From Oscillospiraceae bacterium (GTDB taxonomy: Bacteria > Bacillota > Clostridia > Oscillospirales > SIG627), in the NCBI GenBank assembly GCA_015065265.1, contig SVQQ01000001.1, positions 137,146 through 201,145 on the forward strand: a DNA stretch of 64,000 nt, in the 5' to 3' direction. Made by a program: the position numbers and the translations under genes. This document shows, piece after piece, positions 15,481 to 46,695 of this stretch. The notes below the pieces were generated by a model, which was given only the letters and a program-made list of their open reading frames with translations, had not been told where the DNA came from and made no database searches. Numbering within the stretch: position 1 is the stretch's first letter; each line of letters begins with the position of its first letter.

Positions 15481-16068
15481 ATGAAAAAGTTTGTATGTCC
15501 CGTTTGCGGTTATGTTCACGAAGGAGAATACGCTCCCGAAAAGTGCCCCATTTGTAAAGTACCCGGCGAAAAGTTCAAGGTTATGGAAGAAGGCGCAGCC
15601 CTTGCAGCTGAACACGAATATGGCGTATATTCAAAGACTGTAAAGAATAACCCTGACATATCAGAAGAAGACAAGAAGTACATCTTCGAACAGCTTATGG
15701 CTAACTTCAACGGAGAATGTGCCGAAGTTGGTATGTATCTCTGTATGGCACGTATCGCTCACAGAGAAGGCTATCCTGAAATAGGTCTCTACTGGGAAAA
15801 GGCAGCCTATGAAGAAGCAGAACACGCTGCAAAGTTTGCAGAACTCCTCGGTGAAGACTTAGAACCCAATATGAAAGCCACAACAAAGGACAACTTGAAA
15901 TGGAGAGTTGACTGTGAATATGGCGCAACACAAGGCAAGTTCGACCTCGCTACCTGCGCTAAGAAGAACGGCCTTGACGCAATCCACGACACCGTTCACG
16001 AAATGGCTCGTGACGAAGCTCGTCATGGAAAAGGCTTCGAGGGTCTCCTTAAGAGATATTTTAACTAA
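15481..16068 (+). CDS. rbr: rubrerythrin, 'reverse' architecture (N-terminal rubredoxin-like Cys4, C-terminal diiron ferritin-like domain); its last ~16 codons are supplied by the inserted island
   Basis: [10 protein letters not shown]...CPICKVPG at the N-terminus. Diiron ligand motifs (GECAEVGMY..., [21 protein letters not shown]). The 3' end shares a 17-bp core with the remnant at 46636-46652. Confidence 0.88.
16019..16035 (+). repeat. attL core candidate
   Basis: CGTGACGAAGCTCGTCA inside the rbr coding sequence, identical to 46636-46652. Confidence 0.7.
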
Positions 16069-16142
16069 TTTTAGATACGAAAAAATAAAGTTAAATATCC
16101 TCTGAGAATGGCTTAAAATAAGGCTTTATAAGGAATAATCAC

Positions 16143-16185
16143 GAAACACGATTATCTGATTTTAGATAGTCGTGTTTCTTTTTTA
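16143..16185 (+). terminator. element-borne terminator serving the reconstituted rbr gene
   Basis: Stem GAAACACGA (16143-16151) / TCGTGTTTC (16170-16178) with an inner TATCT/AGATA pairing, followed by TTTTTT. Confidence 0.7.
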
Positions 16186-16206
16186 TTTATATGTATTTTT
16201 CTGTCC

Positions 16207-16229
16207 CGTGGGAAATCCGTGGGAAATGA
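16207..16229 (+). repeat. tandem CGTGGGAAAT pair (putative integrase arm-type sites), left arm
   Basis: CGTGGGAAATCCGTGGGAAATGA is identical to 46549-46571. Further single copies occur at 16319-16329 (direct) and 16257-16266 (inverted, ATTTCCCACG). Confidence 0.6.
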
Positions 16230-16449
16230 GAGAAAAATCGCACGAAAAAAAATAATTTCCCACGAAATCTCTCAAAACGCCCTTGCTACAAGGGTTTTCG
16301 GGGTGTCAAAAAATCGCTTCGTGGGAAATTTTTTCGCCCAAAAATTAAGATTTGGGATTTTTATTTGATAAAATCGGTGTGAAAAATGAGGGAAATTTCA
16401 GCTCCGAAATTGCCTATATTTTAAAATTTTTATTCGGGAGGATATTTTT

Positions 16450-17664
16450 ATGCAAGGAAGTATCAGAAAAAAAGGAGCCACCTGGTCGTACAGAGTTGAG
16501 TTCGGTGCGTCAGGCGGTAAAAGAAATCAGATTGAGAGAAGCGGCTACAAAACAAAAAAGGAAGCTGCAAAGGCTCTCAACGATGTTCTATATCTCTACA
16601 ACAATACGGGCGACTATGTGGAGAACAAGAAAATCACCTTTACCGAGGTCTACACAGAGTTTATCGAAAATGAGGCACCAGCAACAAGAGCCTATGCAAC
16701 CATTGTGCGTTATAAGTCGCTTTACAAGAATCATTATGCGGAAAGATTCGGTAGTTTTTATATGTACCAGATTAACGCAAATATGATAAGCGATTTTCTC
16801 AACGAAAAGCGTACTTATCTCAGTGAGGAATTTGTCAAGGGACTGTATAAGTTTCTGAAAGTGCTTTTCGGATACGCACACAAACGGCAATATATCAAAA
16901 AGGATATTTTCCGTGAGATAACACCGCCACCCGATCCAAGACACAAAGGTGAGATAAGAGCGTACACGCCCGATGAGCTTCGTGCAATGGAACAGCGTTT
17001 GCAGGGGTCTAATGTTATCGTGCCGTTCTATATTGCACTCAATACGGGACTACGTGAAAGCGAGGTCTTTGGACTACAATGGAGCGATATTGACTTTGAA
17101 AACCGCAAAATCAAGGTACATAAGCAGTTATTGTTTCAGGATAAGAAGTGGTGCTTCTGCCCTCTTAAAACTACAAATGCATACCGAAGCGTGAACATCA
17201 CCGACAGCTTTTGTACCTATCTAAAAAATCTCAAAGCCAAGCAAGAGGAAAACAAAGCTTTTTATGGTGACGGCTATAAGCGGAATTTTGTGACGGAACG
17301 CCTTGTGAGAAATAAGGAAAAGCTTATGGAAATCACCGACTTTGTAAATGTCAAAATCAACGGCGAAATGCTTACCACAAACAGTATTAAGTTTATGTCA
17401 AGAACACTTAAAGCTGACCTTGATATACCATTTAAATTCCATAATTTACGGCACACCTACGCTACAGTTCTTGCAGAAAGCGGAATAAGCCCGAGATATG
17501 TACAGGAAACGTTAGGACATTCAAAGCTTGAATTTACGCTCCGCTATTATACCCACATAACAGAGAAAATGGGAGGTATGGCAAGGAAGGCACTTGAGAG
17601 TGCCGTAAGCTTTGCAGCGTTTAACAATGAGGAGGATGAGAATGAGAAAACTATTTGCGAGTAA
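16450..17664 (+). CDS. int: tyrosine site-specific integrase with N-terminal arm-binding (AP2-like) domain
   Basis: 404 aa. The N-terminus (GSIRKKGATWSYRVEFG...GYKTKKEAAKAL) is typical of Tn916/phage-type Int. The catalytic residues are in TGLRESEV (R), HNLRHTYAT (H-x-x-R) and LGHSKLEFTLRYYTH (H...Y). Confidence 0.92.
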   Translation: MQGSIRKKGATWSYRVEFGASGGKRNQIERSGYKTKKEAAKALNDVLYLYNNTGDYVENKKITFTEVYTEFIENEAPATRAYATIVRYKSLYKNHYAERFGSFYMYQINANMISDFLNEKRTYLSEEFVKGLYKFLKVLFGYAHKRQYIKKDIFREITPPPDPRHKGEIRAYTPDELRAMEQRLQGSNVIVPFYIALNTGLRESEVFGLQWSDIDFENRKIKVHKQLLFQDKKWCFCPLKTTNAYRSVNITDSFCTYLKNLKAKQEENKAFYGDGYKRNFVTERLVRNKEKLMEITDFVNVKINGEMLTTNSIKFMSRTLKADLDIPFKFHNLRHTYATVLAESGISPRYVQETLGHSKLEFTLRYYTHITEKMGGMARKALESAVSFAAFNNEEDENEKTICE

Positions 17665-17995
17665 TGCAGTAAAAGAATTTTTAAATGATGCCGATGATAA
17701 GACAAGAAAGAAGATCGGATTTGTGCTTATGTATCTTACTGACGACAAAAATCCGCTGACAGAGCCATATGTAAAACACATTTCAATCGGTAAATACAAC
17801 GACCTATATGAACTTCGTACAAAGGCATCTGGCAATATGGCAAGGATTTTGTTTACACTTTCGGATAAAGATATTGTACTTCTATACGGATTTTACAAGC
17901 ACGACAAAAAGGATAATTTACGAGCATTCGGGAAGGCACACAAGTACTTAAATTGTGACAGCAAAACCGTGATAGATATACATATTTGCTCTTAA
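17642..17995 (+). CDS. Gp49-like / HigB-RelE superfamily toxin-like protein (no cognate antitoxin ORF found)
   Basis: MRKLFASNAVKEFLNDADDKTRKKIGFVLMYL...LYELRTKASGNMARILFTLSDKDIVLLYGFYKHDKK resembles phage-derived Gp49-like killer proteins. RBS GGAGG (17631-17635) favours the ATG at 17642. The gene overlaps the int stop. Confidence 0.6.
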   Translation: MRKLFASNAVKEFLNDADDKTRKKIGFVLMYLTDDKNPLTEPYVKHISIGKYNDLYELRTKASGNMARILFTLSDKDIVLLYGFYKHDKKDNLRAFGKAHKYLNCDSKTVIDIHICS

Positions 17996-18399
17996 AATTT
18001 AAGCAAAAGACCAGGAGAAAAGCACTTTTTTGAAATGTGTTTTTGAAGCTGTATAAAAAAGTCAATTTCTCCTGTTCCTGACACCTCGAAAAGCCTTGTA
18101 TATCAAGGGTTTTGAAACTTAGAATTTTCAAAAAATTAGGTTAGTCGGAGGGTACTGCGGAGGGAGGAGAAATCGGCTCAAAATATGTGCGATTTTATGG
18201 TTCGGGGCATATCCCCTTGCAGGAATTGTGGTTGCACTTACACAGAGGTAAAGCAGTGCGAAAATGCTCCACCTGAGTACAAGTATCGGCGATGCTTTGG
18301 AGAAAAAAGAGAGCGAAGTTGTGCTTGTGCAATATAAGGTGTCGAGGTGTTACAGTCGAATACACAAAACATTGGAGTTAGTAAGGAGGAGATAATTAT

Positions 18400-19215
18400 T
18401 TGTCTGTATTCAGGATAGAAAAAACAAAAGATTATACGGTTATGTCAAACCACCATTTGAGGAATAAAAATCTGTCGCTAAAAGCAAAAGGTCTGTTGTC
18501 GCAGATGCTGTCCTTGAACGACGATTGGGACTTTTCTTTAAAAGGACTTGCCTACATCAATAAAGAGGGCATAGACGCAATCAGAGAGGCTGTCAGAGAG
18601 CTTGAGCGAGAAGGTTACATAGTAAGAGGTCGTGCAAGAAACTCAAAGGGACAGCTTTCGGGAAACGAGTATGTCATTTATGAGTGTCCGCAGACTGTCC
18701 AACCTACATTGGAAAAACCTACGTTGGGAAATCCAACGCTGGACAAACCTATATTGGATAACCCTATGTTGGAAAATCCAACGCAATTAAATACTAATAC
18801 ACAAAATACTGATTCATCAAGTACTGATGTATCAAATATCGAATCACATCCTATTCCTGCCGAGAATGATGTTGAACACAACCGTGATGTGATAAAGGAG
18901 AATATCGAGTACGAATATCTTTGTAAAAATCACCGCAAAGAACAGCTTGACGAAATTGTGGATATTCTCACAGAAACAGTCTCCGGCACAACCGAAACTG
19001 TCCGTATATCTGGCAACGAATATACAAGAGATTTTGTAAAAGATAAGCTTCTGAAACTTCGCTCAGAGCATATTGAGTATGTTCTCGACTGTCTAAAAAA
19101 GAACTCTACAAAAATACGAAACATAAGACAGTATCTCCTTGCAAGCCTTTTCAACGCTCCTTCAACTATTGACAACTACTATGAGGCGGAAGTTAGGCAT
19201 GACTTAATTTTTTAA
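18400..19215 (+). CDS. HTH replication-initiator-like / DnaD-like protein of mobile elements
   Basis: TTG start with RBS AAGGAGG. The N-terminus (YTVMSNHHLRNKNLSLKAKGLLSQMLSLNDDWDFSLKGLAYINKEGIDAIREAVRELEREGYI) matches the winged-helix 'phage/plasmid replication' family seen in Firmicutes MGEs. Internal 15-bp coding repeats give (K/N)P(T/I/M)L(E/G/D) x5. Confidence 0.65.
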   Translation: MSVFRIEKTKDYTVMSNHHLRNKNLSLKAKGLLSQMLSLNDDWDFSLKGLAYINKEGIDAIREAVRELEREGYIVRGRARNSKGQLSGNEYVIYECPQTVQPTLEKPTLGNPTLDKPILDNPMLENPTQLNTNTQNTDSSSTDVSNIESHPIPAENDVEHNRDVIKENIEYEYLCKNHRKEQLDEIVDILTETVSGTTETVRISGNEYTRDFVKDKLLKLRSEHIEYVLDCLKKNSTKIRNIRQYLLASLFNAPSTIDNYYEAEVRHDLIF

Positions 19216-19331
19216 TACGCAATTACCATAATAATGTAAATCATTGACGACTCACAGATACAAAGAAGAATGAGATTTTTGAGATATGGTAAAATATATA
19301 CAGTAAACCAAAACAAAGGAGTTGTCAAACA

Positions 19332-20171
19332 ATGAAAAAAATCACTGAAAAACTTATTAAAAACTTTAGAAATTATCTGATAAACGAAGAGAAGAGCGAC
19401 GCCACGCTTGAAAAGTATATCCGTGATATATGTGCTTTTCTCGCTTGGCTCTGCGGTAGAGGTGTGGATAAACAGACAGTTCTCGAATATAAGGCGTATC
19501 TTATAGAGAACTACAAGCCTACAAGTGTAAATTCTGTTCTGTCCTCTCTCAACAGTTTTTTCACTTTTAACGAATGGTACGATTGTAAAGTTAAATCCTT
19601 AAAGATTCAAAAGCAGATATTTGCTTCCAAAGACAAAGAACTCACCAAAGCCGAGTATGAACGACTACTTGATGCGGCGAAGTCTAAAAAGAATGAGCGG
19701 CTTTACCTATTGATGCAGACTATATGTTCAACTGGTATCCGTGTGTCTGAGCTTCGTTTTGTGACGGTAGCCGCCGTTAATACAGGAGTTGCCAACATCA
19801 ACTGCAAAGGAAAACTCAGACAGGTGTTCTTGCCAAAAGCACTGTGCAAAGTTCTTACACGGTATATACGAGAGCAAAAAATAACAAGTGGCTCCGTGTT
19901 CGTATCCCGAACAGGTAAACCGCTTGACAGAAGCAATATATGGTTTGATATGAAAAAGCTTTGCGAATCCGCTGGGGTTTCAAAGGATAAAGTGTTTCCT
20001 CACAATCTCCGCCATCTTTTCGCTCGCACTTACTATTCGCTTCAGAAAGATATCGTAAGGCTTGCTGATATTCTCGGACATTCCAGTGTGAATACTACGA
20101 GAATTTATACGATGGAAACGGGTGAAGTGCATAAGAGGCAGATTGAAAAGCTGGGACTGCTAAAATGCTAA
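19332..20171 (+). CDS. XerC/XerD-like tyrosine recombinase (candidate invertase for the adjacent switch)
   Basis: 279 aa. It has an N-terminal SAM-like core-binding domain. Catalytic residues lie in STGIRVSEL (R), HNLRHLFA (H-x-x-R) and LGHSSVNTTRIYT (H...Y). Confidence 0.9.
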   Translation: MKKITEKLIKNFRNYLINEEKSDATLEKYIRDICAFLAWLCGRGVDKQTVLEYKAYLIENYKPTSVNSVLSSLNSFFTFNEWYDCKVKSLKIQKQIFASKDKELTKAEYERLLDAAKSKKNERLYLLMQTICSTGIRVSELRFVTVAAVNTGVANINCKGKLRQVFLPKALCKVLTRYIREQKITSGSVFVSRTGKPLDRSNIWFDMKKLCESAGVSKDKVFPHNLRHLFARTYYSLQKDIVRLADILGHSSVNTTRIYTMETGEVHKRQIEKLGLLKC

Positions 20172-20264
20172 AGTGACATAATTCCTATTATGTGGTATTA
20201 ATAACAGCAAAAATCAACTCGAATCTATACAAAATCAATAGAAATAAAAATTTACAGCACGAAA

Positions 20265-20306
20265 AGACCAATGAAAAATTTTAAAGTTACATTGGTCTGT
20301 TTTGTT
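20265..20306 (+). terminator. hairpin terminator inside the invertible segment
   Basis: Stem AGACCAATG (20265-20273) / CATTGGTCT (20290-20298), followed by GTTTTGTT. Confidence 0.6.
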
Positions 20307-20349
20307 ATGCCTTAATTTGTAAAAAGTTTGTGTAATATTATGTAAATCA

Positions 20350-20378
20350 TTGACTTAAAACGCATTTTGTGGTATGAT
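20350..20378 (+). promoter_or_regulatory. sigma-A type promoter inside the invertible segment (currently ON-oriented toward 20463)
   Basis: TTGACT (20350-20355), a 17-nt spacer, TG-n-TATGAT (-10 at 20373-20378). Confidence 0.65.
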
Positions 20379-20462
20379 AAACAAATAAAGTTATATTTAT
20401 ATTGCCTACAACAAAATGACAATACCACATAATAGGAATTACGTAATGGAAAGGATGTATCT

Positions 20463-21041
20463 ATGAGAAAAGACGAATATATGATGCTGCGTGAAGAAAT
20501 GATGTTTAATCAAAAACGCCAGGATAGCATAACGCAGTTTACATATACAACAACTGTTGCAATATGGGCAGCCGCCTTAACAGTAAACAATGCCTGGATT
20601 GTTTACTCGTCATTGTTTATGATTTTGTTAATGACTATGAGAATATCTAATTGTAGAAGGTGTATTGCTTTTTTAGCAGGATATATGAAAGTAGCATTAG
20701 AACCCGATTTGGATTTACAATGGGAAACAAAAAGCTTTGATTATTATGAAATAAACAAAAGAACCACTTCTGAATGGCTATTATATGTGGGTTCAAAATT
20801 CGATTTTCCAATACTTAGCATTATAAGTTCACTATTGTTTTGGGGGCTTCGAGATTGGAAATTTATGATATATAATTCCGTGCTTTTGTCGCACATCACT
20901 TTATTTATTCAAATATTTATTATAGTTTTTGAAATGCTTTTATACTTCAAGTATTCAAGTGTTGCAACAATAAAGAAAAAACTGATTAAGAACTGGGAGA
21001 TTGTTCAAAAAAATGAAAAAGAATTTAGTTGCATTAAGTAA
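20463..21041 (+). CDS. small polytopic membrane protein, unknown function (first gene downstream of the switch)
   Basis: 192 aa with about 4 hydrophobic segments (TTTVAIWAAALTV, IVYSSLFMILLMTM, FPILSIISSLLFWGL, LSHITLFIQIFIIVFEMLLYF). It overlaps the next gene. Confidence 0.6.
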   Translation: MRKDEYMMLREEMMFNQKRQDSITQFTYTTTVAIWAAALTVNNAWIVYSSLFMILLMTMRISNCRRCIAFLAGYMKVALEPDLDLQWETKSFDYYEINKRTTSEWLLYVGSKFDFPILSIISSLLFWGLRDWKFMIYNSVLLSHITLFIQIFIIVFEMLLYFKYSSVATIKKKLIKNWEIVQKNEKEFSCIK

Positions 21042-29457: not shown

Positions 29458-29489
29458 AAGATTGGAGAATATATAAATGAAAAGATTTT
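28970..29489 (+). repeat. ~520-bp direct repeat, copy 2
   Basis: See 25241-25760. Identity runs through the stop codon, the RBS (GGAGAA) and ATGAAAAGATTTT of the next gene. Confidence 0.85.
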
Positions 29490-33566: not shown

Positions 33567-33613
33567 GTGTTTGGAAAATTATTACAGGTATGTGCTTTGT
33601 GGAGGTGAGATGA

Positions 33614-34192
33614 TTGACATTATATCAAGAAAGGAATAAAGCAATACTAGAAATTTTGTTGTCTAACAATGTGGATACTGTATTGGATTGTGGCTGTGGA
33701 AACGGTAGATTATTAAATCTACTATTTAAGAGTTACAAATTCAAGAAATTATCAGGATTGGATAATTCAAAAAAACAAATTAGAATGGCTCGAAAAAAAA
33801 ATATGGATAGTAATATTAATTTTTTTTGTCAATCAATATTTGACTTTGCTTTCAGTTCTGATTTAAGTTATTATGATGCAATTGTAGCTTCGGAAATAAT
33901 AGAACATTTTACCAAGGATGAATTGAATGATTTCTTAAGAATCGTTTTCTCCATATTATCACCTAAAATTGTTATAATCACAACACCAAATAAGGACTAT
34001 AATTACAATTATGAAAAGTTGTACAATGGTTTACGCCATTCGACACATTATTTTGAACTCAATGAATCGGAAGCAATAAACTTTGCCGAGAATATAGAAA
34101 AAAAATATTTGAATTATACGGCAACATGTGATTTTTGTGATATTAATCATTCTTCACATTTGATTACTTTTAAGAGGAGCGTAATTTTATGA
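33614..34192 (+). CDS. stand-alone Hen1-type SAM-dependent methyltransferase (RNA 3'-terminal ribose 2'-O-methyltransferase-like)
   Basis: TTG start 8 nt after GGAGG. SAM motif I is VLDCGCGNGRLL. Three further motifs match the metal-binding and signature motifs I remember for plant and bacterial Hen1 catalytic domains: ASEIIEHF (E-x-x-E-H), TTPNKDYN, and LRHSTHYFELNESEAINFA. There is no N-terminal Pnkp-interaction half. Confidence 0.7.
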   Translation: MTLYQERNKAILEILLSNNVDTVLDCGCGNGRLLNLLFKSYKFKKLSGLDNSKKQIRMARKKNMDSNINFFCQSIFDFAFSSDLSYYDAIVASEIIEHFTKDELNDFLRIVFSILSPKIVIITTPNKDYNYNYEKLYNGLRHSTHYFELNESEAINFAENIEKKYLNYTATCDFCDINHSSHLITFKRSVIL

Positions 34193-36801: not shown

Positions 36802-36804
36802 ATT

Positions 36805-36848
36805 AAGAACTACCGCCTAAACCATAATCGGTTTAGGTGGTAGTTCTT
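36805..36848 (+). terminator. long hairpin after the NTPase gene (terminator-like, weak T-tract)
   Basis: 19-bp stem AAGAACTACCGCCTAAACC / GGTTTAGGTGGTAGTTCTT (one G-U) with a 6-nt loop. Confidence 0.6.
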
Positions 36849-36961
36849 ATGTAAATACAAAGACAGGCCTGACAATATGCTGGGTTCGACTTTGCGTGTT
36901 TTGGTTAATCGTTGAAGAGGAAAAGCAAAAATCATAATGTTAAATTAATTCCATCACAGAA

Positions 36962-37035
36962 TTTCGGCTAATTTTGTAATATTTATAAAATTAGCCGAAA
37001 CTTTTATTGACAAACAGGCAAAATAGGAGTATAAT
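36962..37035 (+). promoter_or_regulatory. 14-bp perfect palindrome followed by a consensus promoter for the DUF4143-type ATPase gene
   Basis: TTTCGGCTAATTTT (36962-36975) / AAAATTAGCCGAAA (36987-37000). TTGACA (37007-37012), a 17-nt spacer, TATAAT (37030-37035). Confidence 0.65.
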
Positions 37036-37077
37036 ATACACATAATTAAACTGCCATTGTTATACACGGAGGAAATT

Positions 37078-38307
37078 ATGAGCTACATCTACCGTCATAT
37101 GGAAAACAGAATAATTGAACTATCGAAGTCATATTCGGCAATTCTCTTGACAGGTCCACGTCAGGCAGGCAAAACGACAATGCTTCGTGCTCTTGCTGAA
37201 AAGGAAAACAAGGGACGTGAATATGTGTCTCTTGATGACCTTGCAACAAGAGATATGGCGAAGAACGACCCTGCTCTCTTTTTGCAGATTCATAAGCCAC
37301 CTGTGCTGATTGACGAGGTTCAGTATGCTCCCGAGCTTTTCACATATATCAAGATTCACATTGACGAGCATCATAATCCCGGAGATTTCTGGATGACAGG
37401 CTCACAGATATTCCGACTTATGCGTGGTGTGCAGGAGTCACTTGCGGGGCGTGTTGCACTTCTTCATATGTCACCTATGTCACAGCGTGAGATTATCGGA
37501 GCTGACTGTGTGCCTTTTACGACTAATATGGAAACGCTTATAGACGAGTGCAAGAAAATCGCTCCCGTAGATACTCCCACCCTTTTTGAACGAATTTGGA
37601 AAGGCTCTATGCCGGGTATTGTATCGGGACTTTATCCTGACCGTAATATGTATTATTCCTCCTATCTCTCTACCTATGTTGAACGTGATGTGAGGGATAT
37701 TTCTGGGACGGTGGATGCGTTGAAATTCAACCGCTTCATTACCGCTGTTGCTGCAAGAACATCACAGCTTCTCAATTATCACGCACTTGCCGAGGATGCC
37801 GAGATTGATATGGCAACCGCAAAAGCGTGGGTAGATGTTCTTGAAACGCTGGGAATCATATTCCTGCTTCATCCCTATTCCAACAACGTGCTGAAACGCA
37901 CTATAAAAACGCCTAAGGTCTATTTCTACGATACTGGACTTGTGTGCTATCTTACCAAGTGGTCGTCGCCTGAAGTCGCAGAAAGTGGTGCCATGAGCGG
38001 TGCGTTGCTCGAAAACTTCACTGTGTCCGAAATTATGAAAGGCTATCAGAACGCAGGCCGTGAGCCGTACCTCTACTTCTACCGTGATCGTGATGCCAAG
38101 GAAATTGACGTAATTATGGAAGGTGACGGTAAGCTTTGCCCATTGGAGATTAAGAAAACTGCAACCCCAGACAAACGTATTATCCGCACTTTCGGCGTTA
38201 TCGATAAATCACCCTTGAAGGTTGGTACCGGTGCAGTTCTTTGTATGGCTGAACAGTTTGGAGCATTTGACAGGGCTAATCTTATTGTACCGATTTGGGC
38301 GATATAA
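37078..38307 (+). CDS. AAA-type ATPase of the AAA_14/DUF4143 family
   Basis: ATG 37078 with RBS GGAGG. Walker A is LLTGPRQAGKTT and Walker B is VLIDEVQ. The C-terminal region is typical of DUF4143 proteins (YFYDTGL..., YFYRDRDAKEIDVI). Confidence 0.8.
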   Translation: MSYIYRHMENRIIELSKSYSAILLTGPRQAGKTTMLRALAEKENKGREYVSLDDLATRDMAKNDPALFLQIHKPPVLIDEVQYAPELFTYIKIHIDEHHNPGDFWMTGSQIFRLMRGVQESLAGRVALLHMSPMSQREIIGADCVPFTTNMETLIDECKKIAPVDTPTLFERIWKGSMPGIVSGLYPDRNMYYSSYLSTYVERDVRDISGTVDALKFNRFITAVAARTSQLLNYHALAEDAEIDMATAKAWVDVLETLGIIFLLHPYSNNVLKRTIKTPKVYFYDTGLVCYLTKWSSPEVAESGAMSGALLENFTVSEIMKGYQNAGREPYLYFYRDRDAKEIDVIMEGDGKLCPLEIKKTATPDKRIIRTFGVIDKSPLKVGTGAVLCMAEQFGAFDRANLIVPIWAI

Positions 38308-38357
38308 CTGAATTTTCATAGAAAATCATATTTGAAATTATATAGAACATAGGAATT

Positions 38358-38366
38358 TGTTATAAT
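38358..38366 (+). promoter_or_regulatory. extended -10 element upstream of the four-gene operon
   Basis: TGTTATAAT (TG-n-TATAAT) at 38358-38366. No clear -35. Confidence 0.45.
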
Positions 38367-38466
38367 TTAAAAAACTTATATTTTGAGAAATTTTATAATT
38401 TGGAGGAGTAAAAGCAAACCACTTATCAAATTTAACATTCTCTGCTATGATTAGATCTTTTTTAAT

Positions 38467-39420
38467 ATGACAGAAAGGAAATATACAATGAATGATTTGT
38501 ATATAAATAAATGTAAAGCATTTATAGACTTTATGCTTTCGCAACAACAATGGTCTGGTATCACAAAAGCTAATATCGACTCTTGGTTGAGTAATTTTAA
38601 AGGATTAACTCACGAAGAACAAGAATTGGTCTATAAGCTATTGACGAACATAATATATTTTTCGGAAAACGATGTGACGGAAGCACTAAGAATAGGTGTT
38701 TATAATTGCTTGTCGTATTCGGACATTCTCCAACAACAAAAAGACTCTAATTTTTCAACGAGTACTCATACGTTGAAAAACACGCACAAGTCAAATATAA
38801 ACAAGGCTTGTTTCGTTCCTTTACTAGATAGTGGTGCCCCGCATGAAAGTGCAAATAATGTGTGTCGTATATTAGTACAGCAAGGTATTATTCCTGCAGA
38901 AAAATCGATGTTTTTGGATCAGGTGCCCTCGTTATTAAAATCAGGACAAGTCAACAATTTGATAATTGTTGATGATTGTGTTGGTAGTGGGGATCAGTTG
39001 CGAACATTTTGGGAAGAAACCAGAGTTAAAGATGATGATAATTCAATAACTATAAAAGATTTGTGTAAAAAATATGGTGCCAAGGCCAATTATCTTACAT
39101 TGTTTGGATATAATAAAAGCATTGAAGATCTTCGCGATGAATTTCCGGATTTAAACATTTTTTGTGTTCGCCAACTTAGCGACCAACACCGGGTATTTTC
39201 TGATTCTTCATATATTTGGAAGAGCGATGAAGAAAAAGCAACCGCTTTCGATTTAATTGATTCGCTTGCTAAAAACGCGGGAATACCTACATACGGGTAT
39301 AATAATTTGGATTTCGCTTTTGTTATGCATAAAACAATTCCCGATTGGTCTCTGCCAATATTTTGGAAAGAAAATTGCGATTGGAAATTACTGTTAAGGA
39401 GGAAAAACTCTAATGACTAA
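38467..39420 (+). CDS. phosphoribosyltransferase (PRTase)-like protein, helical N-terminal half
   Basis: The PRPP-loop-type motif NNLIIVDDCVGSGDQLRTF (nt ~38958-38997) fits the hhhhDDxxxxGxT/S PRTase signature. An alternative start ATG at 38488 has a weak GAAAGGA RBS. Confidence 0.55.
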   Translation: MTERKYTMNDLYINKCKAFIDFMLSQQQWSGITKANIDSWLSNFKGLTHEEQELVYKLLTNIIYFSENDVTEALRIGVYNCLSYSDILQQQKDSNFSTSTHTLKNTHKSNINKACFVPLLDSGAPHESANNVCRILVQQGIIPAEKSMFLDQVPSLLKSGQVNNLIIVDDCVGSGDQLRTFWEETRVKDDDNSITIKDLCKKYGAKANYLTLFGYNKSIEDLRDEFPDLNIFCVRQLSDQHRVFSDSSYIWKSDEEKATAFDLIDSLAKNAGIPTYGYNNLDFAFVMHKTIPDWSLPIFWKENCDWKLLLRRKNSND

Positions 39421-41338
39421 TCAATATAACCCTTTCAAAGAAAATAGAACAGAACAAATGAGAGATTTGTGGAAGTATTATGTTCCTTTTCCTGGGTTGG
39501 ATAGTGCGGGAAAACCTTTAGTGGTAGAAGGTGGGCGCGGAAGTGGGAAAACTATGTTTTTTCAGTGCAATTCGTGGCGCCAAAAAATTCTCGAATTTCA
39601 AAAGAATAGTAAGCCGATAACGGACCTTATTGATAATGAAGATTTTGTCGGAATCTATTATCGTGTTGATACTACTTTTGTATCTTCTATGCGTGAACGA
39701 GAAGAAGATAATTGGGGTGCAATTTTTGAAACCTATTTAGGAATATGTATTCTAAAAGAAATTTTAGATTTAATTTCTGCCCTAAACAAAAGTATGAACT
39801 TGAACGAAGGAACCTTATCAGAATTCTCATTGTCGTTTTCAAAAAAATTAAATACTGATAGTACCACAGATACAATTGATGAATTTCGTAAGGACTGTAA
39901 TGTATTTTTGGATATCATTGAGGATAAAATAAACGGTTCAGAAACTTTATCAAATTTGAGATGCATAAACGCCAATCGCTTTATTACTGATTTATGTGTT
40001 GCCACAAGAGAATTGCTTGGCAAAGAAGAACTGCTTTTTAAAATATTTATTGACGAATATGAAACATTACAAGAGTATCAACAGAAAATAGTCAACACAT
40101 TAATAAAGCATAGTTCTCTCCCGGTTATATTTAACATTGGTCTTCGTCCAAAAGGAATGAAAACGTCTGAAACTATTTCTGAGACTGAAACTATAGAAGC
40201 TCCACATGATTACGAATTACTCTTGTTAGGATTTGAACAAGATAAGTATCCAGAAATTATAAGAGCTATTTGTCAAAAGCGTATTGCACTTGGCAAAGAA
40301 CAGGGTAAAATACCAGAAACAGCTTCTGATGATATAGAGTTTTATTTGGGAAATTATTCAATAGAGTTAGAAATAGAGAAAATTTCTCAAACAACTAAAA
40401 AGCCTCCACACCTTGAGAAACTACGTAGATTAATAAAAACTAGAGCGTATGAGGAAAATTGTTCTGACGAAGAGTTTGAAGAGTATTGTAGAATGCTTTG
40501 CGATGAAGCACCAATACTGAATTCTCGAATGCATTATGCTTTGTTATACAAGAAAACACACTATACCCCGTCGCTTAAAGAACTATATACTTCGTACAAG
40601 AATAATGACGAAAGATATAATGATTGGCTACACAACAGAAAAAATGGTGTAATATATTTATTGTGTAAAGAAACAAAACGTGACAAAATGTATTTTGGGT
40701 TTGATGTTTTTTCAGCACTTTCCTCAAACATCGTTAGATATTTTTTAGAACTCTGTGAACAATCTTTTAAAATAGCATTTTTAAACGGTTATGAGTGGAC
40801 CTCACAAATCTCACCTGAAACGCAAACTGAAGCTGCTCGTTATGTAAGCGAATACAAAATAGTTGATATCGCAGGATACGAACCATACGGAAAAGAACTT
40901 CGTATATTTGTTCAATATTTAGGTCAAATTTTTAATAAATTGCATACCGCAGAAGACAACACATTGGGAGAGCCAGAGCCAAATCATTTTAATACTAAAG
41001 ACTTATCCTTACCAGATTCATCAAAAAAAATAATTGCATCTGCAATTATGTGGAATGTTCTGCAAGAAGGCGAAACTACAAAGAAAAAACAATCCAAACT
41101 ATCTCCCGAAACAGTAGATTATTATTTAAATAAGATATATGTTCCGTACTTTGGAATATCATATCGTAATCAAAGAAAAATATTTATTTCAGTTGATATT
41201 CTGCAAGAACTGTTTTCTGGCAATGAGGAATCTGCAAATAGTGGATTTAAAAAATTCTTTAGAACAGATATTGATGCCAATCCTGGCGGTACACAACTCA
41301 CTTTTTTCAATATGGATACGGAGGATAATGATGATTAA
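39413..41338 (+). CDS. P-loop ATPase, ORC/Cdc6-like AAA+ (tentative family assignment)
   Basis: 641 aa. Walker A is VVEGGRGSGKTMF (nt ~39531-39557) and Walker B is LFKIFIDEYETL (nt ~40045-40070). The start overlaps the upstream stop by 8 nt. Confidence 0.6.
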   Translation: MTNQYNPFKENRTEQMRDLWKYYVPFPGLDSAGKPLVVEGGRGSGKTMFFQCNSWRQKILEFQKNSKPITDLIDNEDFVGIYYRVDTTFVSSMREREEDNWGAIFETYLGICILKEILDLISALNKSMNLNEGTLSEFSLSFSKKLNTDSTTDTIDEFRKDCNVFLDIIEDKINGSETLSNLRCINANRFITDLCVATRELLGKEELLFKIFIDEYETLQEYQQKIVNTLIKHSSLPVIFNIGLRPKGMKTSETISETETIEAPHDYELLLLGFEQDKYPEIIRAICQKRIALGKEQGKIPETASDDIEFYLGNYSIELEIEKISQTTKKPPHLEKLRRLIKTRAYEENCSDEEFEEYCRMLCDEAPILNSRMHYALLYKKTHYTPSLKELYTSYKNNDERYNDWLHNRKNGVIYLLCKETKRDKMYFGFDVFSALSSNIVRYFLELCEQSFKIAFLNGYEWTSQISPETQTEAARYVSEYKIVDIAGYEPYGKELRIFVQYLGQIFNKLHTAEDNTLGEPEPNHFNTKDLSLPDSSKKIIASAIMWNVLQEGETTKKKQSKLSPETVDYYLNKIYVPYFGISYRNQRKIFISVDILQELFSGNEESANSGFKKFFRTDIDANPGGTQLTFFNMDTEDNDD

Positions 41339-42245
41339 AGAAGAATACTCTTTTTGCCATATGGAAGATTATTTGTATAATAATATAGATTTGCTAATAT
41401 CTGGTCAGCCTAATTCAGAAGAGAGAAGTTCTTTTTTCTCAAGTTTGTGGATGTCAAAAAACAAGGATGTTCTTTTTATTGATCTAGAAAACAATGAAAC
41501 TGTTATTTTTAAATATCTTTCTAACAATAACATGGTGTTAAATCGAAGATGTGATCTTTGTGTTGGTTTGCCAAAATTATTGAAACAAATAGGTGTCTCG
41601 GACAAAAATGTATTGTTGGATATGTCAAGTTTAGGTAATGTCTTAATTATGTTTTTGACTAAACAATTGTTAACAAAGGTTGTGCCAAATTCTTTTTTTG
41701 CATCTTATATAAGACCAGAAAAATATAGCAGTGAATCAGGAAATATTGGATATGAATTGTGTCAACAAATCGGAGCTGTTGATGCGGTTCCTGGTTTTAC
41801 AAAACGCGAATCAGATAATCAAACATTGTGTGCTTTTCTAGGCTTTGAAGGTGTTAGGCTAAAAGGGGTTTTAGAAACTGTACATAGTTTTGAAAGATTA
41901 GTGCCTATTGTAGCATTTCCCACGGGAACACCTCAATGGTATAATGTAACAATGTGGAATAGTATGGATATTCTTCAGAGTGAAGGCAAGAATCTTTCTG
42001 TATATAAGTGCTATTCAGAAAGTGTCTTTGAGGCAATCAATCTACTTGACAATATAATTGCTCAAGATGAAACAGTTGTATTAGCACCACTTGGCACTAG
42101 ACCACATTCTATGGCTTGTGCGATATTCGCATGTCATCATGAAGCGACTAAAATATTGTATGATTTTGTTATAGAAAGCAACCACCGTGCTATCGGGGTA
42201 TCGGATATAACAATATATCATCTTTCTTCATTCATAAAATCTTAG
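41331..42245 (+). CDS. hypothetical alpha/beta protein; the C-terminal half is possibly CARF/Csa3-like (speculative)
   Basis: ATG 41331 (or 41328) after GGAGG 41320-41324, overlapping the upstream stop. The track ORF from 41139 is an out-of-context extension. Strand-helix periodicity is visible. The motifs CAFLGFEGVRLKGVL and VVLAPLGTRPHSMACAIFA recall Csa3-type CARF motifs. Confidence 0.5.
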   Translation: MIKEEYSFCHMEDYLYNNIDLLISGQPNSEERSSFFSSLWMSKNKDVLFIDLENNETVIFKYLSNNNMVLNRRCDLCVGLPKLLKQIGVSDKNVLLDMSSLGNVLIMFLTKQLLTKVVPNSFFASYIRPEKYSSESGNIGYELCQQIGAVDAVPGFTKRESDNQTLCAFLGFEGVRLKGVLETVHSFERLVPIVAFPTGTPQWYNVTMWNSMDILQSEGKNLSVYKCYSESVFEAINLLDNIIAQDETVVLAPLGTRPHSMACAIFACHHEATKILYDFVIESNHRAIGVSDITIYHLSSFIKS

Positions 42246-42263
42246 TATAACGGAGGTGAGAAT

Positions 42264-43334
42264 GTGGATTATAGCAAATTTTATACTCCACTAGAAATCG
42301 CAACCGCTTTAATTAACGAACTTACTATTCCCAAACCAGAAAAAATTGTAGATATTTGTTGCGGAAGTTGCAATTTGCTTTTTGCTGCAAAGAAAAAATG
42401 GACAGAGTCCAAATTGTATGGAATAGATGTATCCAACCAAGCTGTTGCAGATAAAGTCAACTTTGAAATAAAAGATGGTAGACAATTTGCTATTGAACAT
42501 CCTCGTGAGTTTTCTTTGGTTGTAGCAAATCCGCCTTTTGATTATGTAGAAAACAAAAATCAATTTCCCGAATTATTTGTTGACCAATTCAATGCAATAA
42601 ACACTTCGCGTCTAGAAATAGAAATGCTAATAGCCAATTTAAGACTTTTACAACCCCATGGCGTTTTGTTAATTATTCTACCCAGTAGTTTTGTGGAAGC
42701 CGAAAGGCATAAAAGAATTAGAAAAATTGTTGCGGAGAATTATTATGTTGAAAGTATAATAAAACTTGATGAATCTACATTTGGTGCTTCCAGAATTAAC
42801 AGTTATGCATTAATAATACACAACGAATTACAAAATGAACGCGATTCGAAGTTTGGTTTTTCCAAAGGGAGTGTTATTTCATATTCCTCCTATGTTAGCT
42901 GGAGTGCATTAAAAGAAGGAAACTGGGAATTAGATACTAGTAACAATGACACTCGTTTAGTAAACATCAAACGTGGGAATATATCCAGTGCCTCTTTCAT
43001 AACTAGAGGACAACCTATTCTGCACACAGCTAAAAATAGTAGCAATTGGCAACCTAGCAAAAGATATATTTCAAAAAAAACTATTCCTACTGTTGTTGCT
43101 GAAGCTGGAGATATAATTGTGAGTCGCATTGGAAAATCTGCAGGTCAATGGTGTGTGTATAATGGGAAAAGAATTGCCATTTCTGATTGCTTGTATCGTA
43201 TTAAAGATCCAAATTCTCTTATATTCAGCAAAATAAATGGTAAAACTTTTAATAGAGAATTAAAAGGTGTTGCAACAAGGTACATAACAATAACAGATTT
43301 TTGTTCTTGGATTAACTCGATTTTGGATGAATAA
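42264..43334 (+). CDS. N6-adenine DNA methyltransferase (gamma-class, TaqI/Eco57I-like) with fused C-terminal HsdS-type target-recognition domain
   Basis: GTG start 42264 after GGAGGTG. Motif I is IVDICCGSCNLL and motif IV is LVVANPPFDY (NPPF at 42528-42539). The C-terminal segment GDIIVSRIGKSAGQWCVYNGKRIAISDCLYRIK resembles TRDs of type I S subunits. Confidence 0.8.
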   Translation: MDYSKFYTPLEIATALINELTIPKPEKIVDICCGSCNLLFAAKKKWTESKLYGIDVSNQAVADKVNFEIKDGRQFAIEHPREFSLVVANPPFDYVENKNQFPELFVDQFNAINTSRLEIEMLIANLRLLQPHGVLLIILPSSFVEAERHKRIRKIVAENYYVESIIKLDESTFGASRINSYALIIHNELQNERDSKFGFSKGSVISYSSYVSWSALKEGNWELDTSNNDTRLVNIKRGNISSASFITRGQPILHTAKNSSNWQPSKRYISKKTIPTVVAEAGDIIVSRIGKSAGQWCVYNGKRIAISDCLYRIKDPNSLIFSKINGKTFNRELKGVATRYITITDFCSWINSILDE

Positions 43335-43520
43335 ACATTATATGTTATCAACATTTTAGATTTGCTAATCTTGATAGGATATTTTACAATCCATAATTGC
43401 TGTTCAAGAATAATTCAAACCGGTACACCTTTGATAGGCACATAAACAACAAACTCGCCCAGTATATATTAACTTCCTGTAAACATTTCACGAAATATAC
43501 TATTATTTTTCCTTCACATA

Positions 43521-43549
43521 TTGCAAATACGCTTTATTTGTGTTACAAT
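43521..43549 (+). promoter_or_regulatory. promoter candidate for a non-coding leader or sRNA
   Basis: TTGCAA (43521-43526), a 17-nt spacer, TG-n-TACAAT (-10 at 43544-43549). Confidence 0.5.
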
Positions 43550-43555
43550 AACATT

Positions 43556-43783
43556 GTAAAAATGGTAAGCAGTTAAAATGGTAAGCAGTTTGAAGGTCTT
43601 GGGGAAGGTATGTTAATTTACCCGACTGAGCCTTTGGTTAAAAGTCGCTTTTAGGAGTAGTATGCTCTTTTGAGAGTGAGTAACTGATTATAAAACAATT
43701 TAATAGGCACTAAAATATTTATTTATCGGTATTAAACACACATTTGTATCTATTTAGGATACGTATGTGTGTTTTCCTTTTTC
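43556..43783 (+). ncRNA. candidate ~230-nt non-coding transcript or attenuator leader (promoter-to-terminator unit)
   Basis: It begins just after the -10 at 43549. It contains the tandem 16-nt repeat AAAATGGTAAGCAGTT x2 (43559-43590). It ends in a long hairpin, AAACACACATTTGTATC (43734-43750) / GATACGTATGTGTGTTT (43758-43774), followed by TCCTTTTTC. No ORF longer than 12 codons is present. Confidence 0.4.
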
Positions 43784-43822
43784 TTGCTAAATTCGCAATC
43801 CCCGCATTAACAAGAAAAGGAG

Positions 43823-44188
43823 GTGGTGCCTATACCCATAGATCTCAAAGGTCTTATTGCAGACTGGTGTAAACGCACAGAACCTATTGATATTCCTATC
43901 TATTTAAGCGAAAAAGAAATCCGAAAAGAATCAAGAAAAATATTTGATAAATTAGTAATACGGATTATAAAAAATGAAATAGACAACCAAATATTGGCTG
44001 ATGAAATATTAAAATTACAAAGGAATGAACGAATCGTTATAACACTAAACATAGTAGAAGAAATGACTCCGGCAGAAATAGCGGAGCTACTCGGAATTAA
44101 CACCAACAATGTGTACGTACAAAAGAACAAGGCTTTAAACAAACTACGGAAACAACTTGAAGAACGAAATTTCAGACACAGGAGGTGA
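43823..44188 (+). CDS. sigma-70 region-4-like HTH protein (Tn916 Orf7-like regulator)
   Basis: LQRNERIVITLNIVEEMTPAEIAELLGINTNNVYVQKNKALNKLRKQL is a region 4.2-type HTH. The start is uncertain because the GTG at 43823 abuts the RBS. Confidence 0.65.
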   Translation: MVPIPIDLKGLIADWCKRTEPIDIPIYLSEKEIRKESRKIFDKLVIRIIKNEIDNQILADEILKLQRNERIVITLNIVEEMTPAEIAELLGINTNNVYVQKNKALNKLRKQLEERNFRHRR

Positions 44189-44193
44189 ATTTT

Positions 44194-44424
44194 ATGACTG
44201 AAAAAAGATTTGACAATCCGCAGGAATTGCTGTATACAATAAGTGAGACAGCAGAGCTTTTGAAGATAAACAAGAATTTTGTTTATACTCTTATAAATCA
44301 GGGGCATCTGAAGTCTATCAAACTCGGCTGCCGTAAGGTAACAAGAAAGTCCCTTTTGGAATTTCTTGATAAGTATGACGGCTTGAACTTTGATGAAATC
44401 CTCGCTTGTGATACAGAAAAGTAA
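44194..44424 (+). CDS. xis: excisionase-family HTH DNA-binding protein (Xis candidate)
   Basis: LLYTISETAELLKINKNFVYTLINQGHLKSIKLGCRKVTRKSLLEFL matches the MerR-like excisionase fold signature. The ATG at 44194 lies 8 nt after GGAGG. Confidence 0.7.
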   Translation: MTEKRFDNPQELLYTISETAELLKINKNFVYTLINQGHLKSIKLGCRKVTRKSLLEFLDKYDGLNFDEILACDTEK

Positions 44425-44438
44425 TTATATAGAGCAGA

Positions 44439-44472
44439 TAAGGCTTCGGAGCGATCCGAGGCCTTATTTTTT
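44439..44472 (+). terminator. terminator after the xis-like gene
   Basis: Stem TAAGGCTTCGGA / TCCGAGGCCTTA (one wobble) with loop GCGA, followed by TTTTTT. Confidence 0.8.
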
Positions 44473-44742
44473 GATGTGCCGAAATAGCAGTTCTTGAAGT
44501 GCTTAAATATTCGAATTTTACATTATTAGAGGTGGCGCTGTTGACCTAAAAAAATGATTTTCAAAACAATGAAAAAATTAATCGACAGCGTCACCTCTAA
44601 ACGCCAAGAAAAGCCTTGAAACAAGGGGTTTTTCGGTGTCTATAGAAACACAAAAAGATAGTCAACAGCACCGTAGGGTAGGAGGTGACGCTGTGGGGTA
44701 TTTTCTGATCGAAATTGTTCGGTCTTTAAGGCATTGAAAATC

Positions 44743-45396
44743 TTGCAGGAATAGCCCTCGTAGATTTGCAGGAATTAGTTAAATTGCTATGCTTTCCTGT
44801 GTGGATGAATCCCTTGCAGGAATTGCGGAATGTGCTATTCAGAAGTGTCAAAGTGAGAAAGCGAGCTATGCGAAAAAGATTCAACAGAGCCTTGGAGGAA
44901 TTTAGGAGAGAATACTTGTTTTTTATGTGTTGCTGAGTTGGGAGTAATGCAGGTGAAAGAGACAAAGCATAGAAGGAATTTCAACAAAAAAATATATACT
45001 ACTTCTCAGTTTCTCTTGATATGCTATTTTGGCAGTTCTTAATCTCGAAAAATAGCCTTTTTGCGAGTAAAACATAAGAAAACACATAGCTTTTGCTATT
45101 AAACCTAAAATTTAAGATATGCCGAAATGGAAGTTCTTAAATATATATCTCCATTGATATTGCTAAGCTATACTTCCTCGCTCTAATTTTCTGAATAACT
45201 CAATCAACATTTCACACTAAATTTCCTCCAATATACTCTGTTGATACATTCTTGTTATTGCAACACACAACCTCAATACAACGCTATGATTACCTCCGAA
45301 ATTCCTCCAAGGGATTATTCCTGCAAGGGTAAAGCGGAGGCTTCTTTTTCTCTCTGAATGAAAAAATCACGAAAAATCAAGACAAAATTCCTGCAA
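44743..45396. repeat. array of the 10-bp motif TTGCAGGAAT in dyad arrangement within non-coding DNA
   Basis: Direct copies at 44743-44752, 44766-44775, 44814-44823 and 44892-44901 (variant TTGGAGGAAT). Inverted copies at 45301-45310 (variant), 45317-45326 and 45387-45396. One more direct copy lies at 18217-18226, upstream of the rep-like gene. Confidence 0.8.
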
Positions 45397-45819
45397 AGAG
45401 AAAGTGGGAAAATCCCACACTGATTTGAGTATGTTTTCACACCATCTCGTCAGCCTCCATACTAGTGCACACTTTTTGCAAATTTGTAATTTTACAAGGC
45501 TCGAAAAGTGCCGTATTTTTAAGGGCTTTTAGAGGTTTTAGGGTGACGAAGTAAGTGTAAATTTCATTTTTTGAAAAATTGCTTTTTTGCAAAAACTTCG
45601 TCAGCCTTAACGTTGGATTTTTCCACCCATAAACACATTTTTGAAATCGATAAATGCCTGTGTAGCATGCAAGACAGATTGATATACTTCTGTAGAAGTA
45701 TAGTTAAAACAAAATTTTGCTTTTTACAAAATGCACTTTTAATGATTTTGTTTCTGTGATATAATATCTTAAAAAGTTTTGAGATGTAAAATTGAAGATT
45801 TGATGGAGGTATAAAGAAT

Positions 45820-46416
45820 ATGGCAGAGGTTTATACATTAAAAATCGTTTACATAGATTGTGATGAGAGAATATGGAGAGAAGCACAGGTGTCCTCTAAC
45901 AACACTCTTGCGAGTATCGGATATATGGTACTTGCAACGTTTGATACCCTGGCATATCATTTGTTTAACATTTCGTATAATGGAACAACCTTTGAGCTTC
46001 CGAACGAAGATTTCGAAATCGGGGAAGATGAATGCCTGTTTTATGTAAAGTTTTCACAGTTAAAGCTGAAGGTTGACGACAAATTGGGAATGCTGTATGA
46101 TTTCGGATGCGAACAGTGTTTTGACATTGAGATAGTCGATATTCAGCCGATGCCCAAGGGCTCAGGAAGAGCTTATCCAAAAATCACGGATGGTGAGGGC
46201 AAAGGAATACTTGACGATACTACTGCTGATGAAACACTTGAAACAATCAAGGAAACTGACAAAAAAGGCAAATCAACACATACATACCTGACACGGTATG
46301 AAGATGAATGCTTATGGGATTACAGAGATTTTGATCTAAAATATGAGAATATTATGCTGAAGGGCGTTATTAAACGAATCGCCGAGGGCTATGAAGTTTT
46401 TGACGAGTATATGTAA
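45820..46416 (+). CDS. pRiA4b ORF-3-like family protein (MGE passenger protein of unknown function)
   Basis: YTLKIVYIDCDERIWREAQVSSNNTLASIGYMVLATF...LYDFGCEQCFDIEIV resembles the PRiA4_ORF3 family pattern (Y-x-L-K-V..., YDFGD-x-W-x-H-x-I). RBS GGAGG is present. Confidence 0.55.
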   Translation: MAEVYTLKIVYIDCDERIWREAQVSSNNTLASIGYMVLATFDTLAYHLFNISYNGTTFELPNEDFEIGEDECLFYVKFSQLKLKVDDKLGMLYDFGCEQCFDIEIVDIQPMPKGSGRAYPKITDGEGKGILDDTTADETLETIKETDKKGKSTHTYLTRYEDECLWDYRDFDLKYENIMLKGVIKRIAEGYEVFDEYM

Positions 46417-46548
46417 TTAAAACTTTTGTGAAATGACCAAAATTAACACCTTGTACATTGACATTCCGCCTCATTTATGATAATATAAATACAAACAGCA
46501 GGAAGCAATTTCTGCTGTGAAAAATCTCATATGTGGGAAGCGGTTTTG

Positions 46549-46571
46549 CGTGGGAAATCCGTGGGAAATGA
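46549..46571 (+). repeat. tandem CGTGGGAAAT pair (putative integrase arm-type sites), right arm
   Basis: CGTGGGAAATCCGTGGGAAATGA is identical to 16207-16229. Confidence 0.6.
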
Positions 46572-46629
46572 AATTTTATAAATTCTCTAAACCCCTGTAT
46601 TTACGGGCAAAATCGGCAATTCTCAATCA

Positions 46630-46695
46630 GATATTCGTGACGAAGCTCGTCACGGCAGAGGTCTTGAAGGACTTTTAAAGAGATATTTTAAATAA
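46630..46695 (+). pseudogene. rbr: displaced original 3' end of the rubrerythrin gene (attR side)
   Basis: It reads [21 protein letters not shown]. This is colinear with the C-terminus of the intact gene ([21 protein letters not shown]) but diverged at the nucleotide level after the 17-bp core. It has no start or promoter of its own. Confidence 0.8.
46636..46652 (+). repeat. attR core candidate
   Basis: CGTGACGAAGCTCGTCA is identical to 16019-16035. Confidence 0.7.

Follow-up and report, generated by a model that had tools for sequence, protein, structure and literature searches.

The DNA analysed here, hereafter the window, is a stretch of 64,000 nucleotides from a rumen/gut Oscillospiraceae bacterium (assembly GCA_015065265.1, contig SVQQ01000001.1, positions 137,146 to 201,145), in which a 30.6-kb island is set into the 3' end of a rubrerythrin gene (rbr). 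Delimited at 16008/16026 on the left and 46635/46652 on the right, this island is very probably a single site-specific integrative element, carried by a tyrosine integrase of a lambda/Tn916-type clade and inserted by recombination between its attP site and the R-D-E-A-R-H codons of rbr. An earlier note on the same DNA had proposed an element that inserts at a conserved stretch of rbr and leaves the gene whole. This proposal is supported by breaks in sequence identity in two comparison loci (L201 and L188) and by the association of the integrase clade with rbr, and not by an empty site. The G+C content of the island is 0.27-0.41 over most of its length, compared with 0.42-0.47 in most flanking kilobases.

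The island is bounded by two copies of an exact 18-bp direct repeat, TCGTGACGAAGCTCGTCA (Table 1). The window contains the 17-mer CGTGACGAAGCTCGTCA at two positions only, 16009-16025 and 46636-46652, where about 0.01 occurrences would be expected by chance. The right copy had been located correctly in the earlier note, and the left copy had been placed 10 bp too high, at 16019-16035. The 18-bp cores are part of longer direct repeats, 77 nt in length and 78% identical, that span the remainder of the rbr reading frame. A third copy of core and tail was not found inside the window with a degenerate pattern allowing up to three mismatches. The right copy had been described as a promoterless end of rbr, and its reading frame agrees with this description, being continuous to a stop codon that ends at 46695 and cut off from any start codon by upstream stop codons in the same frame. 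The two distinct terminators described after the two copies were likewise recovered as hairpins, and the left terminator region is conserved in loci L041, L201 and L202. The exact Rbr protein of the window was found on 17-22 contigs from metagenomes or metagenome-assembled genomes (MAGs), with the integrase next in every case. Among 134 close Rbr homologues gathered, the right-hand tail is the commonest, in a sample biased by a query that carried that tail. This right-hand tail, at 46653-46695, looks like the native end of rbr.

Comparison with other genomes was used to examine the two junctions. L201, an NCBI MAG from another host in which rbr is preceded by Spo0A, Lon and FUR genes, contains a sibling element with an integrase protein 97% identical to that in the window, a Gp49 gene and a second recombinase. 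At the nucleotide level, L201 matches the window at 84.1% of positions along the rbr body and at 17/18 in the core; the match is 43/43 over the tail and 96.1% over the arm region that separates tail from integrase, and it is 88.5% within the integrase gene. The jump in identity from the rbr body to the tail and arm region indicates that the tail, the terminator and the arm repeats belong to the element. Read from these identities, the replacement tail is shown to move between hosts with the integrase and not with the host gene. At the other end, L188 and the window are 98-100% identical in the chromosomal sequence right of the core, whereas the island side is approximately 83-88% identical, and the change falls at the core. 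Contig L189, which represents the same strain type as L188, begins inside the core (46639). These comparisons show the second core to be the right boundary between element and chromosome. A similar picture was obtained from L110 and L113 (human-gut host), which carry different integrases: most of a 600-nt stretch before the core is 97-100% identical between them, with 92% in its final 100-nt bin, and only 38-70% identity is left after the core. The L201 and L188 comparisons together point indirectly to recent movement or replacement at the rbr site.

The integrase clade was represented by 234 cluster representatives (90% identity clusters) at E <= 1e-60. Integrase relatives of 53-97% identity with enough upstream sequence were considered informative, giving 14 loci: L041, L074 (both elements), L108, L109, L110, L111, L113, L115, L201, L202, L285, L288 and the window itself. 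The rbr core and tail lie 350-460 bp before the integrase start in 14/14 of these loci. By comparison, none of the 152 loci carrying distant integrases (<=33% identity) has an rbr hit or the core motif. The order of core, tail, terminator, two direct, one inverted and one direct decamer, and integrase is kept with similar spacing in 13 of the 14 elements, L109 being the exception. The clade is thus always found at one and the same position of rbr. In phage, plasmid and viral-contig collections, the best matches to the clade integrase reach only 31% (INPHARED, PLSDB) and 33% identity (IMG/VR).

The elements carried by this clade are diverse. L285, with an integrase 74% identical to that in the window, is conjugative and contains TraC/VirB4-like, PrgI and NlpC/P60 genes. 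L288 is phage-like, with NrdD, ThyX and homing endonucleases. In L074 (10511-17215), a 6.3-kb element encoding ParA, ParB and an ATPase stands in tandem with a second element, and each has its own tail. In the L202 array (9480-10001), only core and tail precede the integrase, adjoining another island. Duplicated tails and short inserts without an integrase were found in L013 (10532-11370), L021 (10532-11450) and L061 (10538-11760), of which L013 keeps arm-like GGTGGGCA repeats. These integrase-less inserts at rbr look like cis-mobilizable remnants. L056 (10514-11018) is also among the loci with inserts at the rbr 3' end.

The sequence features expected to serve recombination are present in the window. 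The integrase gene starts 425 bp from the left core, close to the 400 bp estimated before. Its candidate catalytic residues R202, H331, R334 and H357 and a C-terminal Tyr are invariant in an alignment of three clade members. Six exact arm-type decamers, CGTGGGAAAT, are clustered at the two ends of the island, four in the interval from rbr to the integrase gene and two at the right, and analogous decamer pairs lie to the left of the second core in L074 and L013. The right core and its flank form the palindrome CGTGAC-GAAGCTC-GTCACG, in which 6-bp inverted half-sites surround a 7-bp spacer. Homology between the paired copies starts as late as GAAGC in L013 and ends at ...GTCA in the window, limits that together place the crossover within GAAGCTCGTCA. 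Strand exchange has to take place inside the core, probably in GAAGCTC.

The arm decamers also vary across the clade. GTGGG is constant and the 3' half is variable (AAAT, CAAA, CACT, AACA, CTGT). The 3' half covaries with integrase residues at approximately positions 7-11 (KKGATW, KRGNTW, KRKNNAW, KKRKNAW, KRYNNAW). The two tandem elements of L074 have different decamers.

In the mechanism that we propose, the N-terminal domain of the integrase would bind the CGTGGGAAAT arm repeats, four near its own gene and two at the opposite end, and its core domains would bind the inverted half-sites CGTGAC/GTCACG, with strands exchanged across the 7-bp GAAGCTC overlap. Insertion would push the native rbr tail and terminator 30.6 kb downstream. 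A full-length hybrid rbr would nevertheless result, because attP would carry approximately 43 bp of rbr-like coding sequence together with a terminator. Compared with the predicted native protein, the hybrid Rbr would carry three substitutions (R to K, L to F, K to N). Excision, aided by the HTH_17 excisionase, would restore rbr with its native tail.

An integration module, a regulator pair and a replication-initiator-like gene were identified in the island, and no transfer or virion genes were matched. Pfam, NCBIfam and PHROGs scans of the long open reading frames (ORFs) from 16450 to 46416, nearly the whole island, matched no relaxase, coupling protein, VirB4, capsid or terminase, the same outcome as in the earlier note. 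An integrative and conjugative element (ICE) was rejected, with no VirB4/TraC-like ATPase, coupling protein or relaxase in the window scans. As no conjugation or virion genes are present, any cell-to-cell transfer would need a helper, and we infer that the element resembles an integrative and mobilizable element (IME). The island fits a relaxase-less IME (as in PMC5704250) and, equally, a decayed conjugative element.

Several results weigh against the proposed element and its mechanism. An empty site, which had been predicted in related genomes as rbr contiguous with the sequence from 46653 onward, was not found: the contigs with identical Rrf2, Rbr or DHODB-like flank protein (approximately 22 each) all carry the island, as do those with a 1-aa variant of the right-flank protein. 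The Rbr protein predicted for an empty site was not present among approximately 15 billion sequences, and the clusters recovered in a homology search for it had at most 95% identity. Neither the predicted 39-nt attB in metagenome contigs nor the predicted attP junction in IMG/VR was found. With neither attB nor attP found, present-day excision is unproven and the island could be fixed in its lineage. The DHODB-like gene was found downstream of rbr in 0/80 rbr loci from GTDB species representatives, and the nearest DHODB-like homologues (86%) and the closest Rbr bodies have other neighbours. Since the neighbours differ in related species, synteny with the right flank is not conserved and an empty site is not findable by synteny. 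The putative overlap and half-sites are assigned from sequence symmetry and from the ends of homology in sister sites. Finally, neither a relaxase nor a recognisable origin of transfer (oriT) was found with Pfam, NCBIfam, PHROGs, Rfam or comparison with sister loci, and the non-coding stretches of the island show no oriT-like similarity to sister loci; the mobilisation route is therefore conjecture.

Some of these results would also suit an immobilised relic, that is, a conjugative element that arrived by the same mechanism, lost its transfer module and has since been inherited vertically as a surface and defence island. The presence of the island on every sampled conspecific contig, the failure to find attB or attP, the absence of matched transfer genes and the 1.4-kb ORF-free stretch near the right end are all compatible with such decay, and loss of a transfer module is plausible because the clade includes a true conjugative element (TraC/VirB4-like, PrgI, NlpC/P60). 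The integrase, the excisionase, both cores and all arm repeats, however, look intact, and a 97%-identical integrase with a 100%-identical tail is found in a different host (L201) and a diverged variant element in a near-identical chromosome (L188). We consider a relic possible, though doubtful.

Less probable is a composite of two or more elements from which an internal att site has been lost, in which case the 30.6 kb would not be one element. Against this, the window contains no third core and tail copy with three mismatches allowed, no second cluster of arm repeats (other GTGGGAAA matches are isolated) and a single integrase of the clade. Such accretion has its precedents in the arrays at the same site in L074 and L202, and it would account for the mosaic G+C content of the island (0.37-0.41, then 0.27-0.32, then 0.445, then 0.32-0.37) and for a sibling in L201 without the DUF6017 gene. 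On balance, we regard it as unlikely. A prophage or phage satellite integrated in rbr is very improbable and was rejected: no virion structural or packaging genes, and no capsid, terminase, portal, tail or lysis module, were found in Pfam and PHROGs, and the integrase has no close relative in IMG/VR, although the clade member L288 precedes phage-type nucleotide-metabolism and homing-endonuclease genes, and both the Gp49 and the integrase families occur commonly in phages. A chance repeat, or a local duplication of the 3' end of rbr without any link to mobile DNA, has in its favour only that the core is a conserved coding motif and is refuted by match statistics (approximately 0.01-0.02 matches expected) and by the comparative data, namely the link between the integrase clade and rbr and the changes in identity at the core.

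The features of the putative integrative element and of its junctions are listed in Table 1. No tRNA genes were found in the window and no Rfam families in the island. The cargo had been described as almost entirely surface and defence functions, which is broadly right and omits an invertase switch, a toxin gene and a replication-initiator-like gene. Not mentioned in the earlier note were the second tyrosine recombinase, the Gp49/HigB-like gene and the six arm-type decamers.

Table 1. Coordinates of the rbr junctions, predicted recombination sites and genes of the island, numbered from the first letter of the window.
Feature	Position	Strand	Evidence or remark
Rubrerythrin gene, hybrid of host body (to 16007), core and element-borne tail	15481..16068	+	Pfam RUBY_RBDX and Rubrerythrin; 195 codons
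Putative attL core TCGTGACGAAGCTCGTCA	16008..16025	+	exact repeat; identity break vs L201 here
Element-borne replacement rbr tail	16026..16068	+	43/43 identical to sibling element L201
Element-borne terminator hairpin for hybrid rbr	16143..16178	+	16-pair stem, then T run
Four arm-type decamers CGTGGGAAAT	16207..16329	.	16207 and 16218 direct, 16255 inverted, 16320 direct
Tyrosine integrase, N-terminal arm-DNA-binding domain	16450..17664	+	Pfam Phage_integrase 3.7e-24, Arm-DNA-bind_4, Phage_int_SAM_3
Gp49/HigB-like toxin-family gene	~17642..17995	+	Pfam Gp49 3.2e-14
Replication-initiator-like protein, HTH_36 and DUF6017	18400..19215	+	Pfam; PHROG replication initiation / DnaD-like (N-terminus), E=4e-22
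Second tyrosine recombinase, XerC/D-like, putative invertase	19332..20171	+	Pfam, NCBIfam; 96% identical copy in L201
Invertible segment, 24-nt inverted repeats at both ends	20176..20444	.	opposite orientation in L201
192-aa ORF	20463..21041	+	upstream of giant surface-protein genes
Three giant cell-surface protein genes	21001-25728, 25849-29457, 29477-33313	+	Pfam CHAP, SH3_3, Big_2, Flg_new, SLH
Defence-type cargo: methyltransferase, PNP_UDP/AAA protein, DUF4143 ATPase, PRTase-CE, ORC/Cdc6-like, CARF6-like, N6 DNA methylase	33614..43334	+	Pfam; PADLOC PDC-S01, PRTase_III-A, CARF6, MTase_II
Sigma-70 region-4 protein	43823..44188	+	Pfam; NCBIfam sigma70-ECF
HTH_17 excisionase-family protein	44185..44424	+	Pfam; TIGR01764 'excise'; sequence-level match only
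1.4-kb stretch without convincing ORF	44425..45819	.	several inverted repeats
PRiA4_ORF3-family gene, last of island	45820..46416	+	Pfam 2.6e-20; 87% identical in variant element L188
Two arm-type decamers CGTGGGAAAT, right arm	46549..46569	+	66-87 bp left of right core; conserved in L188
Putative attR core	46635..46652	+	identity break vs L188 here; contig L189 starts at 46639
Displaced, apparently native rbr tail, no longer part of gene	46653..46695	+	in-frame continuation of right core
Apparently native rbr terminator	46708..46737	+	13-pair hairpin, then T run

The Gp49/HigB-like gene overlaps the 3' end of the integrase gene, and the same integrase-Gp49 pair is present in L201 and L202. 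No recognisable helix-turn-helix antitoxin ORF follows it (17612-18400 inspected). The DUF6017 gene, missing from the sibling element in L201, contains five to six 15-nt tandem repeats at 18701-18784 that encode the pentapeptide (K/N)P(T/I/M)L(E/G/D). These repeats could be a linker or iteron-like sites. The DUF6017 protein has no match among PDB sequences, and nothing relevant on DUF6017 was found in the literature.

Directly after the second recombinase, 24-nt inverted repeats at 20176-20199 and 20421-20444 enclose 221 nt. A promoter-like site rated strong (20350-20378; TTGACT, 17 nt, TG-n-TATGAT) lies between them and, in the orientation of the window, faces the 192-aa ORF and the three giant surface-protein genes. 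In L201 (13020-13282), the enclosed segment is inverted (89.5% identity across 247 nt of the opposite strand), and contigs L099, L200 and L201 end exactly at the repeat edges. All complete conspecific contigs have the orientation of the window. Taken together, there is good evidence from these alignments for a predicted inverton-type DNA-inversion switch carried by the island upstream of the surface-protein genes.

The 3' parts of two surface-protein genes (~24650-25728 and 28378-29489) share approximately 840 nt at 94% identity, including 100%-identical 89-nt blocks, a pattern that suggests recombination or gene conversion between these paralogues. Several metagenome contigs break at ~25347-25380, in the repeated part of a surface-protein gene. 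Further downstream, the 870-aa PNP_UDP/AAA protein and the DUF4143 ATPase (PDC-S01) are encoded directly upstream of a row of consecutive PRTase-CE, ORC/Cdc6-like and CARF6-like genes, which with the N6 DNA methylase that follows it occupies 38467-43334 and matches PADLOC candidate-defence models (PRTase_III-A, CARF6).

The sigma-like and Xis pair, placed in the earlier note about 2.2 kb inside the right junction, was recovered at 43823-44424 with Pfam and NCBIfam matches, and Xis homologues are found alongside the integrase in L074 and L288. The stretch from 44425 to 45819 has no Rfam match and no similarity to sister loci apart from L188; an oriT site or a decayed gene is possible there. Outside the island, the regulator upstream of rbr in the window (15013-15456) belongs to the Rrf2 family, with a MazE-family gene (14613-14855) to the left of the Rrf2 gene. 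A FUR/PerR-family regulator replaces Rrf2 upstream of rbr in several hosts of the same integrase clade (L087, L201, L285).

Mobile elements that enter the 3' end of a conserved gene and supply a replacement tail are a textbook case, so that the mechanism itself is not new. Rubrerythrin is an oxidative-stress gene present throughout anaerobes. What appears to be new is rubrerythrin as a target gene and this integrase clade, both seemingly undescribed; no report of rubrerythrin as an att site was found in literature searches. Members of the clade turn up repeatedly in Clostridia of the rumen and human gut, where elements of very different kinds carry them. More broadly, it may be proposed that the RDEARH codons of rbr are an undescribed attachment hotspot, widely used in gut and rumen Clostridia, where one clade would serve conjugative, phage-like and defence-island elements. 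Under this proposal, arm specificity would have diversified, which may allow tandem stacking with separate excision, and the tails may rewrite the Rbr C-terminus across species. We consider the chances of this wider proposal evenly balanced. The conserved core and arm layout provides a simple marker by which islands, with their limits, and tandem arrays can be found in little-studied Oscillospiraceae MAGs, and the integrase and its att site are a candidate tool for site-specific integration into gut anaerobes that are difficult to engineer. The cargo indicates that phase-variable giant surface proteins and candidate defence systems travel together on such islands.

The element resembles several known systems in part. 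The e14 element and phage 21 insert in the 3' coding part of icd in E. coli and bring a diverged alternative 3' end, giving a hybrid protein in lysogens. The putative rbr element shares with them the insertion in the 3' coding part of a conserved gene and the element-borne alternative end. Those are, however, lambdoid phages or prophages of Proteobacteria, whereas the present element is non-viral, resides in Clostridia and has another integrase and another target.

Streptococcal ICEs and IMEs integrate in the 3' ends of housekeeping genes, such as ICESt1 and ICESt3 in fda and IMEs in ribosomal-protein genes, and give rise to cis-mobilizable elements (CIMEs) and tandem accretion (PMC5704250). 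The rbr elements likewise combine a tyrosine integrase and an excisionase with a target at the 3' end of a conserved protein-coding gene, keep the gene end within one flanking repeat so that the gene is not disrupted, and are accompanied by att-flanked integrase-less remnants and tandem arrays at the same site. They differ in the rbr target, in their hosts (Oscillospiraceae and other gut Clostridia) and in the integrase clade, and the element in the window is without a conjugation module or relaxase. MGI-type IMEs (mobilizable genomic islands, e.g. MGIVflInd1), which are mobilised by SXT-family ICEs, are 18-33 kb in size and encode only an integrase and a recombination directionality factor, with no conjugation protein (PMC5704250). 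The 30.6-kb island, with integrase and Xis and no transfer genes matched, is similar in this respect. Unlike the island, in which neither such a mimic nor similarity to a helper was found, MGIs have a demonstrated mimic of the helper oriT, and their hosts and integrases are unrelated to those described here.

The closest annotated integrases are those of Clostridioides difficile phages phiC2 and phiMMP01, with only 31% identity. In its overall organisation, the system is comparable to Lambda Int and Tn916 Int, with which it shares an N-terminal arm-binding domain, arm repeats on both sides of the core and a small helix-turn-helix excisionase. Unlike Tn916, whose target specificity is loose, the integrase clade of the window is strictly site-specific.

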